Shown: positions 5,345 to 31,147 of the stretch, one piece after another | How the letters are laid out: the number at the start of each line of letters is the position of its first letter | Position numbering within the stretch: position 1 is the stretch's first letter | NCBI GenBank assembly: GCA_040752575.1 | Contig: JBFMGK010000052.1 | Span: 1,674-65,673 of the forward strand | DNA length: 64,000 nucleotides | From: Candidatus Bipolaricaulota bacterium | GTDB lineage: Bacteria; Bipolaricaulota; Bipolaricaulia; UBA7950; UBA9294 | Direction of reading: 5' to 3' | Notes under the pieces: generated by a model | Databases searched by the model: none | Seen by the model: only the letters and a program-made list of their open reading frames with translations | Told to the model about the DNA's origin: nothing | Made by a program: the position numbers and the translations under genes

Positions 5345-7030
5345 TCAGGCCGGCTCTTGCGACTTGGCCCACGTGTCGCGCAGGGTCGCCGTGCGGTTGA
5401 ACACGGGTCGGCCTGCCTGCGAGTCCGGATCGCACGCGAAGTACCCCTTGCGTTCAAACTGGAATCGGTCCCCCGGCGTGGCGGACGCGAGCGACGGCTC
5501 GAGTTTGCAGGGCGTCACGACCAACGAATCGGGCCGGAGCCCGGAGAGCCAGTCTTCTCCCGCGTCCGCAGCCTCAGGACGCTCTCGCGCAAAAAGCGTC
5601 TCGTAGAGGCGCGCCTCGCCGTCGATCGCGTGTCCGGCGGACACCCAGTGAAGCGTCGCCTTCACTTTGCGGCCGTCGGGTGCGTCGCCTCCTCGCGTAG
5701 CCGGATCGTACGTGCAGTGGATCTCGCTCACCTCGCCAGCGGCGTCCCGTACGACGCGTTCGCATCGAATGAAGTATCCGTAACGCAACCTGACTTCGCG
5801 GCCCGGCGCGAGGCGGAAGAACTTGCTCGGCGGATTCTCCATGAAGTCCTCGCGCTCGATCCATAGCTCGCGCGAGAAGGGAACCTCTCGCGTTCCGGCA
5901 CCGGGCTCCTCGGGGTTGTTCACCGCTTCGAGCCATTCCTCTTGGCCGTCAGGATAGTTGTCGAGGACGACCTTCACGGGGTCGAGGACGGCCATCACCC
6001 GCGGTGCCCGGAGATTGAGGTCCTGACGGGCGCAGTGCTCGAGAAACGCGAGCTCGACCAATCCCTCGGCCTTGGTGACCCCGACGCCGCGGATGAAGGC
6101 TCGCAGAGCCTCGGGCGTGTAGCCCCGGCGACGCAAACCACGCAGGGTCGGCATTCGCGGATCGTCCCATCCGCGTACGTGCCCCTCCTCGACCAGCCTC
6201 CGCAGTCTGCGCTTGCTCATGACCGTGTAGGTGATGTTGAGGCGGCTGAACTCGATCTGCCGCGGCCGGTAGGGCACGGGCAGGTTGTCGAGAAACCAGT
6301 CGTAGAGCGGGCGGTGGTTCTCGAACGCAAGGTCGCACAGCGAGTGAGTGATTCCCTCGATGGCATCGGACTGGCCGTGGGCCCAATCGTAGGTCGGGTA
6401 GATGCACCAGGCATCGCCGGTCCGATGATGCGAGGCGCGAAGGATTCGGTACATCACCGGATCGCGCATGTTGAGGTTCGGGTGCGCCATGTCGATTTTC
6501 GCGCGCAGTGTCCGGGAACCATCGGGGAACTCGCCGGCGCGCATGCGCCGCAACAGGTCGAGGTTCTCCGCGACGGGGCGGTCTCGGAAGGGGCTGTCCT
6601 TTCCGGGAGGCGTGAACACTTGTCCGCTACGTTCGATGGCGGTTCCACGATACGCGCTGATCTCCTCGGCCGTCAGGTCGCAGACGTAGGCCTTGCCCTC
6701 GCGAACAAGGACCTCGGCCCACGCGTACAACTGCTCGAAGTAGTCCGAGGCGAAGAACACCCGGTCCTGCCAATCGACGCCGAGCCATCGCATGTCCTCG
6801 ACGATCCCGTCGACGAACTCCTGCTCTTCTCTGGCTGGGTTCGTGTCGTCGAAGCGCAGGTTGAACGCGCCGCCGTACTCCTGAGCGATTCCGTAGCTCA
6901 GGAGAAACGCCTTGGCGTGTCCGATGTGAAGATACCCGTTCGGCTCCGGCGGAAAGCGTGTGCAGACTCGACCGCCGTTCTTGCCGGCGGCGACGTCGTT
7001 CGACACGATCTCGCGGATGAAGTCTCGCAC
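5345..7030 (-). CDS. glnS: Glutamine--tRNA ligase
   Basis: HIGH motif ([14 protein letters not shown]), VMSKR (KMSKS-like), class I aaRS catalytic core followed by a GlnRS-type anticodon-binding region. Start is probably the GTG at 7030 (VRDFIREIV aligns with the GlnRS N-terminus). The longer ORF to 7162 is probably an over-extension. Confidence 0.88.
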
Positions 7031-16298: not shown

Positions 16299-16340
16299 GG
16301 CCTGTCCCTTCTCCGGGCGGAAGCCCCGCCGCGGATCGAC

Positions 16341-16396
16341 GCGTAGGAGCCATCAGCCTGGGTAGGCGGTTCTCGGGGGACTCCATCCCCATCGCG
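16341..16396 (-). promoter_or_regulatory. Fluoride riboswitch (crcB RNA motif) in the crcB leader
   Basis: The minus strand reads CGAUGGGGAUGGAGUCCCCCGAGAACCGCCUACCCAGGCUGAUGGCUCCUACGCG. This matches the conserved GAUGG...AACCGCC...GCUGAUGGCUCCUAC core of the fluoride aptamer. It is followed by a GC hairpin before the crcB start. Confidence 0.85.
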
Positions 16397-16397
16397 A

Positions 16398-16430
16398 GGG
16401 ATCTTACCCTACACAGAGCCTTCGACAACC
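16398..16430 (-). promoter_or_regulatory. Putative promoter of the riboswitch-crcB-DUF190 transcript (TTGTCG-17-TAAGAT)
   Basis: The minus strand reads TTGTCGAAGGCTCTGTGTAGGGTAAGATCCCTCGCGATGG, just 5' of the aptamer. Confidence 0.3.
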
Positions 16431-28707: not shown

Positions 28708-29109
28708 GCCACCTCGCTTCGTGCTGAAGCCGTCTTGGGAGACGTCAACTCCTTCGAAGCTCCTGCGCCCAATCGACCGTAGCGCAGCGACCTGCCTGCG
28801 CGTAGGCCCTAGGTGCGCGACCCCAGTGCGTGATGATCCGCACTGAACACGGACAGCCGACCTAGCTCGACAGCGAGGCGCAAGGCGGCGGTGGGGTGCG
28901 GTCGTTGCTCGCGTTGGTCGCGGTCGATCTCTGGATGCAACGGGCGCCTTCCTCCTGCGTCGGTCGCCCGTGCGCAGGCTTCCGACGACACGGGGGCCTG
29001 CCTGTCCTCAGCCGACGGGAGACGTGCTAGACTGCTCATGACCCAACAGACGTGGAACTACCTACCACACCGGAGGCATCCGCCTGACCCGTGGGGAGGG
29101 AGGTACGCG

Positions 29110-29685
29110 ATGAGCGTCGAGCAACCCAGGTATGCGGTCCTCAGGTCTTCCGCCAAGCGGGAGGTTCGCCGCTACGAAGCGAGGACGGTCGCGGAGACAG
29201 CGGTTGAGGGGTCCCAGGAGAAGGCACTGAGCGAGGCATTCTCGATCCTCGCGGGCTACATCTTCGGTGGCAACGTGCCTGCGGCCAGGATCGCGATGAC
29301 GGCCCCCGTGACGCAGTCGCGAGAGGCGCAGCGAATCGCCATGACGGCGCCGGTTCTTCAGCACAAGATGAGTTCAGGCGAGGCACCCAAATGGGTCGTG
29401 CAGTTTACGATGCCGTCCAGGTACGCACTCGGTGACCTGCCCCAGCCGACCGACAAGCGGGTAAGAATCCGGGAAGTCCCGGCCACGACGATGGCCGCGA
29501 TCCGCTTCTCGGGTCTTGCACGAGCCGAGACGCTTGCAGCGAAGGAGAGGGAGTTGCGGGAGTTCATGGCCGACCAGGGACTCAACACCCTTGGCGCGGC
29601 GGTCTACGCGTTCTACAACGCACCGTTCACCCTACCTCCCCTTCGCCGCAACGAAGTTCTGATCGAAGTTGCTCCGACGGAGTGA
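29110..29685 (+). CDS. SOUL heme-binding protein family
   Basis: 191 aa from the ATG at 29110 (GGGAGG upstream). YxxLxxxxxYExR pattern typical of SOUL/HBP. Confidence 0.75.
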   Translation: MSVEQPRYAVLRSSAKREVRRYEARTVAETAVEGSQEKALSEAFSILAGYIFGGNVPAARIAMTAPVTQSREAQRIAMTAPVLQHKMSSGEAPKWVVQFTMPSRYALGDLPQPTDKRVRIREVPATTMAAIRFSGLARAETLAAKERELREFMADQGLNTLGAAVYAFYNAPFTLPPLRRNEVLIEVAPTE

Positions 29686-29702
29686 TCGGTTGCTTCGCTT
29701 AC

Positions 29703-30158
29703 GTTGGGAGAGGAGGATGGCTACAGGAGCGGCTGCCGGTTCTCCTGTAGCTGCCGAGTTTGCTTGCGCAAACTCGTGGCACCAGTCCTCGATCTCGGAT
29801 CTCCCGTGGCTCGTGAGTCTGCTGTGCAGACTCCATCCTTGATTTGGGGGTTCTCACCACCTGCTCCCAATGCAGAGCCCCAGGAGCGAAATGGCGCCTG
29901 GGGCTTCTCGCTGGAGAGGAGGATGGCGACTGGAGCGGCTGTTCGATGCTCCAGTCGCTGGGGAGTTCGCTAGCGCGAACTCTATCCTTGAGTGGGAGTT
30001 GTCACCGACGTTGGGAGAGGAGGATGGCCGCTGGAGCCATTCCGCGATTCTCCAGCGGCTTGGGAGTTCGCTTCGCGAACTCCATCCTTGGCTTGGCGTT
30101 TCTCACCCCGCACTCCCAACCACAAGCCCCCAGCGACGAAAACGCGCCTGGGGGCTTG
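29703..30158 (-). repeat. Three tandem structured repeat units (about 208, 99 and 149 nt), each beginning on the plus strand with a copy of the tRNA-Gln 3' end (GTTGGGAGAGGAGGATGG) and containing two or three conserved hairpins with compensatory substitutions
   Basis: Units start at about 29703, 29911 and 30010. Hairpin 1 is GCTACAGGAG/CTCCTGTAGC, GCGACTGGAGC/GCTCCAGTCGC or GCCGCTGGAG/CTCCAGCGGC. Hairpin 2 is GAGTTTGC-ttg-CGCAAACTC, GAGTTCGC-tag-CGCGAACTC or GAGTTCGC-ttc-GCGAACTC. A closing CCATCC pairs with GGATGG, and CTCCCAA(C) pairs with (G)TTGGGAG. Strand was assigned by analogy with the tRNA. Confidence 0.8.
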
Positions 30159-30232
30159 TGGTTGGGAGAGGAGGATTCGAACCCCCATTAACAGGGCCAG
30201 AGCCTGCTGTCCTGCCATTGAACGATCTCCCA
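30159..30232 (-). tRNA. tRNA-Gln (anticodon CTG), 74 nt with encoded CCA and a U1:A72 pair
   Basis: The minus strand reads TGGGAGATCGTTCAATGGCAGGACAGCAGGCTCTGGCCCTGTTAATGGGGGTTCGAATCCTCCTCTCCCAACCA. The cloverleaf folds with a 7-bp acceptor stem, the anticodon loop CUCUGGC and the T-loop TTCGAAT. Confidence 0.85.
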
Positions 30233-30313
30233 GATGAGCGGCATGGTACGCGAGCACACGCACGTCGTCAAGACCGGCTGGGCCTTTCCGCAAGAGGGAG
30301 GTACAATGGCCGC

Positions 30314-31147
30314 ATGAGTCGCGGGGTCCGTCCGCCGGTCGTTGCTGGAGCGTTCTATCCGGAAGACCCGACACGGCTTCGCGAGATGGTCCAGCGCCTT
30401 CTCGGCACGGCGCCCGCCGCGGCGAATCCGTCTCCACATCTGGGGTTGGTCGTTCCCCATGCCGGCTATCCCTACTCGGGTGCGATTGCCGGGAAGGGCT
30501 TTCGCTTCGCCGCCGAGCGCGGCACGCCCGACGTCATCGTCTTCCTTGGCGCGAATCACACGGGGCGCGGGCCGGCGGTCTCGCTCTCCGACGACGCGGC
30601 GTGGGCCACGCCGCTGGGAACCGTGCCGGTCGACGATGAAGCCCTGGCGCACTTGGAGTCGCTCGGCCTACGCCGGGCGCCCGAGGCGTTCGCGGGCGAG
30701 CACGCGATCGAGGTCGAGCTGCCGTTCGTCCAGGTTCTGTTCGGCGACCGTGTTCCGATCCTCCCCGTGTCGGTGCAATGGGCGCCGCTGCTCACGCTCC
30801 GCGCCGCGGCTACGGCTATCGCGTCTGCCTTTCGAACGCGCCCGGCCTGGTTCGTGGTGAGTTCGGACTTCACGCATTACGAGCCCGACGATCGCGCACG
30901 GGCGCGAGACGCGCGGGCCCTGGACAGGATTCTGGCCGGCGACGAGGAAGGGCTGCACGCGCTCGTCGCGCGCGAGCGGCTGTCGATCTGTGGCGCCGGC
31001 GCGCTCGTCGTGCTGTTGTCGATGTCACGTCATCTGGACCTTTCCAGGATCGAGAGGATCGCCTACGCGACGTCGGGCGACGCAACGGGGGATCGAGAGG
31101 CCGTAGTGGGCTACGCTGCGGTCGGACTTACCGAGGAGGTTTCATGA
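30314..31147 (+). CDS. MEMO1 family protein (AmmeMemoRadiSam system protein B homolog)
   Basis: ATG at 30314. HAGYxYSG and FxxxxDxTH-type motifs. 277 aa. The N-terminal ORF extension spanning the repeat region was rejected. Confidence 0.85.
   Translation: MSRGVRPPVVAGAFYPEDPTRLREMVQRLLGTAPAAANPSPHLGLVVPHAGYPYSGAIAGKGFRFAAERGTPDVIVFLGANHTGRGPAVSLSDDAAWATPLGTVPVDDEALAHLESLGLRRAPEAFAGEHAIEVELPFVQVLFGDRVPILPVSVQWAPLLTLRAAATAIASAFRTRPAWFVVSSDFTHYEPDDRARARDARALDRILAGDEEGLHALVARERLSICGAGALVVLLSMSRHLDLSRIERIAYATSGDATGDREAVVGYAAVGLTEEVS

Follow-up and report, generated by a model that had tools for sequence, protein, structure and literature searches.

A tRNA-Gln-anchored array of structured non-coding units

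The window analyzed here, a 64-kb stretch of a Candidatus Bipolaricaulota contig taken as a whole, contains exactly one tRNA gene, tRNA-Gln(CTG), on which ARAGORN and Rfam agree. Three related non-coding units (U1, U2 and U3) lie 3' of this gene in a feature spanning 530 bp, which on the tRNA strand reads tRNA-Gln, hairpin A, U1, U2, hairpin B, U3. Our data show that these units belong to a hairpin-unit family that is conserved in Bipolaricaulota and previously undescribed, and we read the feature, with moderate confidence, as a cargo-free stretch of a serial insertion array at the tRNA-Gln 3' end. The parts of the feature are listed here, with hp1 and hp2 denoting the small hairpins within a unit.

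30159..30232, minus strand: tRNA-Gln(CTG) with encoded CCA (ARAGORN; Rfam RF00005, 57.1 bits)
30161..30176, minus strand: 16-nt core copy 1, ATCCTCCTCTCCCAAC, at the tRNA 3' end (exact)
30113..30168, minus strand: spacer hairpin A, a 21-bp perfect helix (30168-30148 with 30133-30113) with a 14-nt loop
30010..30120, minus strand: unit U1, full type, 111 nt (nhmmer 108.5 bits, E = 7e-33 against the family profile)
U1 parts, minus strand: TTGGGAG; GGTGAGAA loop, 30107-30100; hp1, 30083-30063; ACTCCCAAG, 30067-30059
U1 parts, 3' half, minus strand: hp2, 30059-30027; core copy 2, 30025-30010
29909..30009, minus strand: unit U2, short type, 101 nt, without spacer hairpin and without TTGGGAG (nhmmer 79.8 bits)
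U2 parts, minus strand: GGTGACAA, 30006-29999; hp1, 29982-29963; hp2, 29958-29926; ATCCTCCTCTCCAGCG, 29924-29909
29871..29908, minus strand: spacer hairpin B, GAAGCCCCAGG paired with CCTGGGGCTCT (direct and inverted repeats, folding)
29703..29870, minus strand: unit U3, long type with an internal partial duplication, 168 nt (nhmmer, two partial matches of 52.6 and 46.5 bits)
U3 parts, minus strand: TTGGGAG, 29870-29864; GGTGAGAA, 29858-29851; hp1a, 29834-29815; 38-nt insert, 29814-29777
U3 parts, 3' half, minus strand: hp1b, 29776-29755; hp2, 29751-29720; core copy 3, 29718-29703

The core ATCCTCCTCTCCCAAC comprises the last two T-loop bases, the T-stem 3' strand, the acceptor 3' strand, the discriminator and the first C of CCA. 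It occurs in three exact copies, at the tRNA 3' end (30176-30161), at the end of U1 (30025-30010) and at the end of U3 (29718-29703), and U2 ends in a degenerate copy, ATCCTCCTCTCCAGCG. An earlier note on this DNA had described three related units 3' of tRNA-Gln(CTG), and both their presence and the tRNA call are confirmed. That note had each unit end in a copy of the tRNA 3' end and begin with TTGGGAG, which is true of U1 and U3, with exact 16-nt ends, but not of U2, which lacks a CCCAA end and does not start with GTTGGGAG. Its long hairpin between units is found between the tRNA and U1 and between U2 and U3 but is absent between U1 and U2, and its two hairpins per unit are seen in U1 and U2, while U3 has three small ones. 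The hairpin stems that it listed are all present and perfectly paired.

A search with a 17-mer core allowing up to three mismatches gave five matches in place of the 0.15 expected, and none of 100 shuffles gave as many. Tandem Repeats Finder reported a period of 101 nt (1.9 copies, 77%), and a repeat search found a super-period of 249-250 nt as well. The left arm of hairpin A is made of the tRNA acceptor 3' strand, CCA and trailer, and its right arm ends in an inverted core, TTGGGAG (30119-30113); the tRNA end plus hairpin A folds at -50.3 kcal/mol (z = -9.8 against shuffles). The units likewise fold below their own shuffles (U1, z = -4.7; U2, z = -5.3; U3, z = -5.4). We found no further unit copy in the window using nhmmer --max, with heuristic filters off.

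The unit family is tied to tRNA-Gln across Bipolaricaulota

We searched for relatives with a 22-nt pattern spanning hp1 and hp2, then with a gapped pattern, and then with a nucleotide family profile. The first pattern matched six genome contigs and the second 71 metagenome contigs, and the family profile identified 198 unit copies, in arrays of 1-8, in 77 Bipolaricaulota genome and metagenome loci (designated L001 and so on), of which some represent the same genome region twice, so that independent loci number nearer 60 than 77. All comparison loci come from metagenome or metagenome-assembled genome (MAG) assemblies. The three unit types of the window are recurrent variants, full, short and long, of one non-coding module type: other arrays too contain the short type of U2, one instance lying at the junction CTCTCCC/GGTTCTGGGCGGTGAGAA (here and below, a slash within a sequence marks the junction), and the long variant, as in U3, is also present in L001, L007, L011, L015 and L081. 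Our literature search, which covered Bipolaricaulota integrons, attC sites or CALIN (clusters of attC sites lacking integrases) together with tRNA, integron-like tRNA-linked hairpins and tyrT/rtT, turned up no account of this family.

The link to tRNA-Gln is exclusive. ARAGORN detected a tRNA in 45 of the 77 loci, and in all 45 it is tRNA-Gln (36 CTG, 9 TTG), on the strand of the units and 5' of them; in 44 of these 45 loci a unit lies directly behind the tRNA. Moreover, the unit ends match the neighboring tRNA. CTG arrays contain 69 units with CTCCC-type ends and none with GCCC-type ends, and TTG arrays, in which the tRNA ends in ...CGCCCTAA, contain 14 units with GCCC-type ends and none with CTCCC-type ends. 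The unit 5' strand changes alongside, being TTGGGAG in CTG arrays and TTAGGGC in TTG arrays. Many relatives' units end in ...CTCCCAACCA, like the end of a mature tRNA.

Occupancy of the site varies between relatives. The order of the Memo gene and tRNA-Gln seen in the window (the flanking genes are described below) is common to L001, L004, L008, L009 and L011. In L001, where the Memo protein is ~55% identical, this synteny and an identical tRNA-Gln are followed by a hairpin and three units, with a second unit block 4.1 kb beyond the first, and units of L001 and the window share an identical 22-nt stretch. L004 and L005 have the same synteny and tRNA-Gln and no units. Three short Memo contigs (L002, L003 and L006) end inside tRNA-Gln, ~110 nt upstream of Memo; such assembly breaks fit a region behind the tRNA that differs between co-occurring strains.

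Some units in relatives hold extra mini-hairpin modules, GTTCTCC-GNA-GGAGAAC and GTRCCC-GNA-GGGYAC, with cGNAg triloops (L007:300-370, L009:7760-7815, L081:3165-3215 and, in array orientation, L025 at ~6040-6080); none occurs in the window. They show compensatory changes of their own, GTGCCC with GGGCAC versus GTACCC with GGGTAC.

Unit hairpins are maintained by compensatory changes

We aligned 81 distinct full units together with 52 nt upstream (alignment A1), using MAFFT and a nucleotide profile hidden Markov model, and counted pairs for each explicit structure. The counts below are of alignment cells, which represent sequences and not independent events, and the alignment of the spacer hairpin is imperfect.

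hp2: 97.4% of cells paired; double changes in 7 of 10 pairs; one column holds A-U 36, G-C 20, C-G 17 and U-A 5
hp1: 92.2% of cells paired; double changes in 5 of 9 pairs
Spacer hairpin: ~82% of cells paired (limited by alignment); many pairs with double changes
Spacer extension through CCA into the core: 75.5% paired; double changes in 6 of 9 pairs
Whole structure: 85.7% paired; 75.2% in shuffles, none of 500 reaching the observed value; 37-53% with 3' partners slid
Unit 5' strand with its own 3' core: ~75% paired; indistinguishable from pairing with the upstream core
GGAT/ATCC helix: ~70% paired; no double changes; one pair formed in only 24 of 81 units

As an independent prediction, hp1, hp2 and a portion of the spacer hairpin also emerged from RNAalifold. 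These data support selection on the units for intramolecular pairing, as the earlier note had argued from compensatory differences among the three window copies, and the hairpins covary throughout the family. Two helices that the same note had proposed fared less well. A GGATGG/CCATCC helix enclosing the hairpins was dropped as a family feature, since it shows no covariation, with one pair present in just 24 of the 81 units. A pseudo-acceptor stem closing each unit does form when U1 is folded alone, but TTGGGAG pairs at least as well with the upstream core copy, at the base of the spacer hairpin.

Several single-stranded motifs are invariant: GGTGAGAA, ACTCCCAAG between hp1 and hp2, and GCCATCCTCC. 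The motif between hp1 and hp2 (ACTCCCAAG or ACTCCCCAG; window 30059-30067 and 29958-29966, minus strand) is itself core-like, a third such motif inside the units; it occupies columns ~186-196 of alignment A1 and, unlike the terminal core, is constant in tRNA-Gln(TTG) arrays. Together, hp1 and this internal motif resemble the pseudo-T-arm of the gene cassettes described below, both starting with GGAGTTC and ending with ACTCCCAA.

We also considered the units as tRNAs or tRNA pseudogenes and rejected this, in agreement with the earlier note: ARAGORN called only the genuine tRNA, and there was no second RF00005 match at E up to 10. No Rfam 15 family matched the units at gathering score in the window and 12 related loci, or at E up to 10 in 29600-30300. 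The real Rfam matches were the tRNA and fluoride riboswitches only; the others were generic hairpins far under threshold.

Folding is selected on the tRNA-sense strand

We surveyed 121 distinct perfect hairpins whose loops span 3-4 nt. Read on the tRNA strand, G..A loops account for 58 of them (GNA 25, GNYA 22, GNRA 11) and the complementary pattern for two; UUCG occurs once. The closing pair is C-G in 99 of the 121. Spacer hairpins have 72 G-U pairs on the tRNA strand versus 18 on the complement. These two asymmetries show that folding is selected on the tRNA-sense strand. Folding energies of the two strands are mixed: the spacer and GGTGAGAA hairpins favor the tRNA strand, hp1 and hp2 are symmetric, and whole units favor the G+T-rich complement through extra G-U pairs.

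The loops cGNAg and cGNNAg are classic, very stable loops of single-stranded DNA (ssDNA) hairpins. Because G-U pairs are nearly absent from hp1 and hp2 (~1% of cells) and loops of this kind close the hairpins, we lean toward ssDNA rather than RNA as the folded species.

Gene cassettes alternate with units and share their junctions

In relatives, cassettes of 0.8-8 kb alternate with the units, and 28 intervals separate unit blocks on the same strand by 1-9 kb. The cassette genes are diverse and lie in either orientation. They encode transporters (MFS, TrkAH, MgtE, ABC-2), enzymes (GH5 and GH127 glycosidases, a trypsin-like protease, GNAT acetyltransferases and a metallo-beta-lactamase-fold protein), Schlafen/AlbA and HEPN proteins, AbiE and AbrB-type toxin-antitoxin pairs, and a KdpD sensor kinase, beta-helix proteins, a serpin and a PAS-HD signaling protein. 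Recurrent clusters of open reading frames (ORFs) near arrays proved to be housekeeping neighbors, diverse cargo or spurious ORFs running through repeats.

The polarity of the arrays is strict. On the array strand, every cassette closes with a conserved pseudo-T-arm joined to the core, GAGTTCTAAAYCTGTCCAYYACTCCCAA(CCA); a mismatch-tolerant search found no such end on the opposite strand. One 0.8-kb toxin-antitoxin cassette illustrates the junctions, since it occurs with identical boundaries in five contexts: directly behind a genuine tRNA in L038, behind a unit in L033 and L034, behind another cassette in L016, and also in L025. On its left lies ...CTCCCAACCA/, and on its right its own pseudo-T-arm-CTCCCAACCA/, followed by a unit or another cassette. 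A "208-aa" ORF in this cassette is spurious; its true products, an AbrB-type antitoxin and a toxin, are encoded on the other strand.

Between otherwise similar loci, the junctions coincide with the core CTCCCAA. L059 and L081 are 99.96% identical over 2742 nt and split exactly after CTACTCCCA/A, and 30 of 83 homology breakpoints lie within 14 nt of a core motif, versus 6% for random positions. Cassette left ends share the motif CCA/RCRCNGGAAAC...CCTGTCTG, and often hold, 40-60 nt in, a further decayed T-arm- or acceptor-like piece, which suggests older, classical integrations with longer tRNA segments. Hairpins lie close to both module ends: the spacer hairpin begins 3-5 nt past the left junction, and the distance from the end of hp2 to the right junction is always 16 nt.

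Two insertion sequences were found within arrays, an IS3-family rve transposase (L042:709-1602) and IS21 IstA/IstB (L016:2880-5158), and an ORF at L012:258-536 reads by eye as a putative transposase-associated helix-turn-helix protein.

Searches for a recombinase

The earlier note had reported no integrase in the window, and this holds under profile search: phmmer and jackhmmer with XerD, IntA and lambda Int seeds found no tyrosine recombinase in its six frames. The same search over 83 related loci (~570 kb) gave two unrelated matches, about chance density. The first, L026:2369-2938 (minus strand), is a 189-residue tyrosine recombinase consisting of a catalytic domain only (PF00589, Phage_integrase, E = 3e-17). 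It lies behind a GNAT gene, 1.1 kb past the point where the units of a tRNA-Gln(TTG) array end, and occurs once; it is a possible candidate for the array recombinase. The second, L049:5126-5425 (plus strand), is a truncated C-terminal XerD-like integrase fragment, 55% identical to E. coli XerD over 49 residues, located ~330 nt from a cassette pseudo-T-arm end and beside a HEPN_LA2681 gene. Apart from these two, none of the elements has its own integrase beside an attachment (att) site. A six-frame regular-expression search for tyrosine and serine recombinase motifs returned no matches, the pattern being too strict.

Flanking genes and transcription signals

Neighboring features of the array are the following.

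28891..29685, plus strand: SOUL haem-binding gene, convergent with the array (Pfam PF04832, E = 4e-47)
30243..30271, minus strand: promoter-like TTGACG-17-TACCAT directly 5' of tRNA-Gln, the sole sigma-70-like match in 29300-30500
30314..31147, plus strand: gene for a Memo / AmmeMemoRadiSam system protein B, divergent from the tRNA (Pfam PF01875, E = 1e-56)

The array ends 18 nt from the SOUL stop codon. A Candidatus Bipolaricaulota MAG encodes P0001, which is identical to the window Memo protein; the next relatives of the latter are ~54-55% identical. A 425-aa ORF (29870-31147, plus strand) that passes through the repeats and the tRNA was rejected as a run-on, the Pfam match starting at residue 156; the true Memo start is the ATG at 30314, and the 277-aa product is identical to the database protein. 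GC-rich repeats produce long spurious ORFs of this kind both in the window and in related loci.

The promoter-like context TCTTGAC..TACCAT is also found 5' of the tRNA in L001, L004, L009 and L011. We found no T-run terminator in 29300-30500, where no site fits an intrinsic terminator; in some relatives TTTTGGG follows the hairpin.

Elsewhere in the window, a fluoride riboswitch (crcB motif) lies at 16337-16399 (minus strand; Rfam RF01734, 54.6 bits). A second fluoride riboswitch was found within array cargo, beside a DUF190 gene (L038:8309-8372).

A model of serial insertion at the tRNA-Gln 3' end

In relatives, inserted DNA is flanked by direct repeats of the tRNA 3' segment, and occupancy of the site varies among related genomes. 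The shared polarity of the modules, the core copy before and at the 3' end of each, and this variable occupancy together point to serial site-specific insertion. Among the origins that the earlier note had entertained, an element that targets and duplicates the tRNA 3' end and serial integrations at an att site fit the comparative data best. In the model that we favor, a module would insert behind the acceptor-strand core CTCCCAA, within ATCCTCCTCTCCCAAC. Because each module carries its own 3' core copy, every insertion would regenerate the target, and modules would accumulate head to tail, all oriented alike. The recombinase acting at the core would be encoded elsewhere and work in trans; a tyrosine recombinase is most likely. 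The unit hairpins would fold in the tRNA-sense single strand, and the long hairpin, in which the core is paired with its inverted copy TTGGGAG, might be a structured recombination or accessory site. The role of the hairpins in recombination, the type of recombinase and ssDNA as the folded species are inferred.

Several points weigh against this model. The window array holds no cargo, and the pseudo-T-arm motif occurs nowhere in the window; the array could have grown by local tandem duplication alone, and mobility cannot be shown from the window alone. Every relative is known from metagenome assembly, which may have created some of the junctions artificially. No recombinase is consistently linked to arrays in the window and the 83 loci, searches of IMG/VR with the unit and pseudo-T-arm patterns gave no matches and hence no evidence of a phage or plasmid carrier, and no circular or excised form was seen. 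The argument for ssDNA depends on general loop rules. Finally, a promoter-like site 5' of the tRNA with no T-run terminator behind it makes transcription of the window units probable, and they may act as RNA.

That last point leads to the alternative that survives best, an RtT-like one, although we consider it unlikely: the units would form the co-transcribed tRNA-Gln 3' trailer, released at their tRNA-like ends by RNase P, RNase Z or exonucleases as discrete structured RNAs that act, for example, as decoy, regulator or stabilizer, and the DNA array would be a by-product of unequal recombination between the repeated tRNA ends. Transcription would be expected to run on through the array from the promoter-like site, and the loop and G-U asymmetries do put the folded strand on the tRNA-sense strand. 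Yet G-U pairs at ~1% of hp1 and hp2 cells are unusual for RNA helices, and GNA and GNYA loops outnumber GNRA, with one UUCG only. The mature-tRNA-like ends of many relatives' units, and the acceptor-like stem that U1 closes by itself, would suit tRNA-type processing, but the acceptor 3' strand and CCA of the tRNA are tied up in the 21-bp hairpin, which would be in competition with the tRNA's own fold. The layout is matched at E. coli tyrV, with an annotated small RNA, RttR, that matches Rfam RtT, whereas the units here match neither RF00391 nor any other Rfam family at E up to 10. The units are also dispensable for tRNA-Gln, as L004 and L005 have none, and the coding cassettes with pseudo-T-arm ends and core junctions are left unexplained.

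Transposition of a palindromic element as ssDNA by an HUH/Y1 enzyme (IS200/IS605-, PATE- or REP/RAYT-like), inserting 3' of CTCCCAA beside a hairpin and building oriented tandem arrays because each copy ends in that motif, appears to us improbable. It would account for the strict single-strand polarity of units and cassette ends, for hairpins next to both module ends, for a target motif regenerated at the right end, and for cGNAg/cGNNAg loops, typical of stable ssDNA hairpins. Such elements are normally dispersed in many copies, however, and here the units are confined to tRNA-Gln arrays, with none elsewhere in the 64 kb; arbitrary host-like operons would be atypical cargo, and we noticed no Y1/HUH transposase or TnpB among annotated cargo, where no dedicated profile search was made. 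That the array is inert debris, either remnants of att sites in decay or copies of the tRNA 3' flank made by slippage, the hairpins being leftover terminators, is very improbable: the degenerate U2 core, the partial duplication inside U3, the decayed tRNA pieces at relatives' cassette left ends and the lack of cargo in the window would suit it, but units are conserved between genomes whose flanking protein is ~55% identical (a 22-nt stretch being shared unchanged by the window and L001), hp2 stays 97% paired through compensatory changes involving four pair types at single positions, and the single-stranded motifs GGTGAGAA and GCCATCCTCC are invariant.

Returning to serial insertion, since relatives' units alternate with gene cassettes behind tRNA-Gln, the site resembles a hotspot of gene capture, one that this genome leaves "empty". 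A more specific proposal, which we offer tentatively, is that Bipolaricaulota possess an undescribed, integron-like gene-capture platform on tRNA-Gln: cassettes and non-coding "empty" modules would enter serially at the acceptor-strand core, a folded ssDNA hairpin in which the tRNA 3' end pairs with its inverted copy would serve as the site, and a recombinase would be supplied in trans. The array may prove a distinct platform of this kind. If the model is true, it defines a hotspot of gene gain and loss for a candidate phylum without a cultured model, and adds structured recombination or junction elements of a new class, mimics of a tRNA 3' end. The family is absent from Rfam 15, and its 81 distinct full copies with covariation are enough for modeling and searching.

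Comparison with known systems

The E. coli RtT/rttR repeats (RF00391) share with this array tandem non-coding units of 100-180 nt directly 3' of a tRNA and on its strand, each carrying the terminal 16-21 nt of the tRNA, with identity starting in the T loop (AATCC... in E. coli, ATCC... here). At tyrV (NC_000913, 1286600-1287400) we found a 178-nt unit three times, each with the last 21 nt of tRNA-Tyr, and four RF00391 matches, the copies scoring 133-138 bits. The Bipolaricaulota units differ in having no RF00391 match (at gathering score or at E up to 10) and no sequence similarity, in their tRNA (Gln, not Tyr), phylum and hairpin architecture, and in the interleaved cassettes with pseudo-tRNA 3' ends, which are not seen at the E. 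coli locus examined. The shared T-loop boundary raises the question whether RtT repeats also began as tRNA-site insertions.

The tycheposons of Prochlorococcus integrate serially at the 3' part of a tRNA, pushing older elements outward; they are separated by partial tRNA copies, carry flexible adaptive cargo, span several kb and encode their own tyrosine or large serine recombinase plus replication genes (bioRxiv 10.1101/2020.12.28.424599). With serial insertion at a tRNA 3' end, partial-tRNA repeats and flexible cargo, they are the closest published case. The Bipolaricaulota modules, in contrast, are single genes, small operons or non-coding units of 100-170 nt, without a linked integrase, and their junction modules are structured and covarying.

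Integrons, with their attC sites and CALIN, resemble the arrays in several respects: arrays in one orientation (here in relatives, the window holding repeats only), mostly single-gene cassettes that include toxin-antitoxin pairs and acetyltransferases, and structured repeats of ~60-150 nt between cassettes, with stems that covary as the sequence varies, and with strand-specific folding. Moreover, the arms of hairpin A in the window, CCCAAC...GTTGGG, resemble the attC core sites R''/R'. Most family members, however, replace the attC AAC/GTT triplets (AAAAC/TTTGG(G), ATAC/GTAT, TAAGA/TCTTA). Hairpin A is perfect and the family hairpins are continuous, whereas attC is imperfect, with extrahelical bases and an unpaired central spacer. 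The anchor is a tRNA gene and not attI beside intI, no intI having been found in the window and 83 loci, and cassette genes lie in both orientations.

CTX-phi is integrated by XerCD through a folded ssDNA attP and forms tandem arrays at one chromosomal site. As in that system, the array has a direct and an inverted core on one strand that can pair in a hairpin and so rebuild a double-stranded recombination site; here the target is a tRNA end and not dif, phage genes are absent, and no viral contig in IMG/VR has the motifs. The array thus belongs to none of RtT, tycheposon-like islands or integron attC arrays, and it connects three phenomena that are normally treated apart: repeats linked to tRNAs, RtT among them, flexible islands anchored on tRNAs, and cassette arrays of the integron kind.

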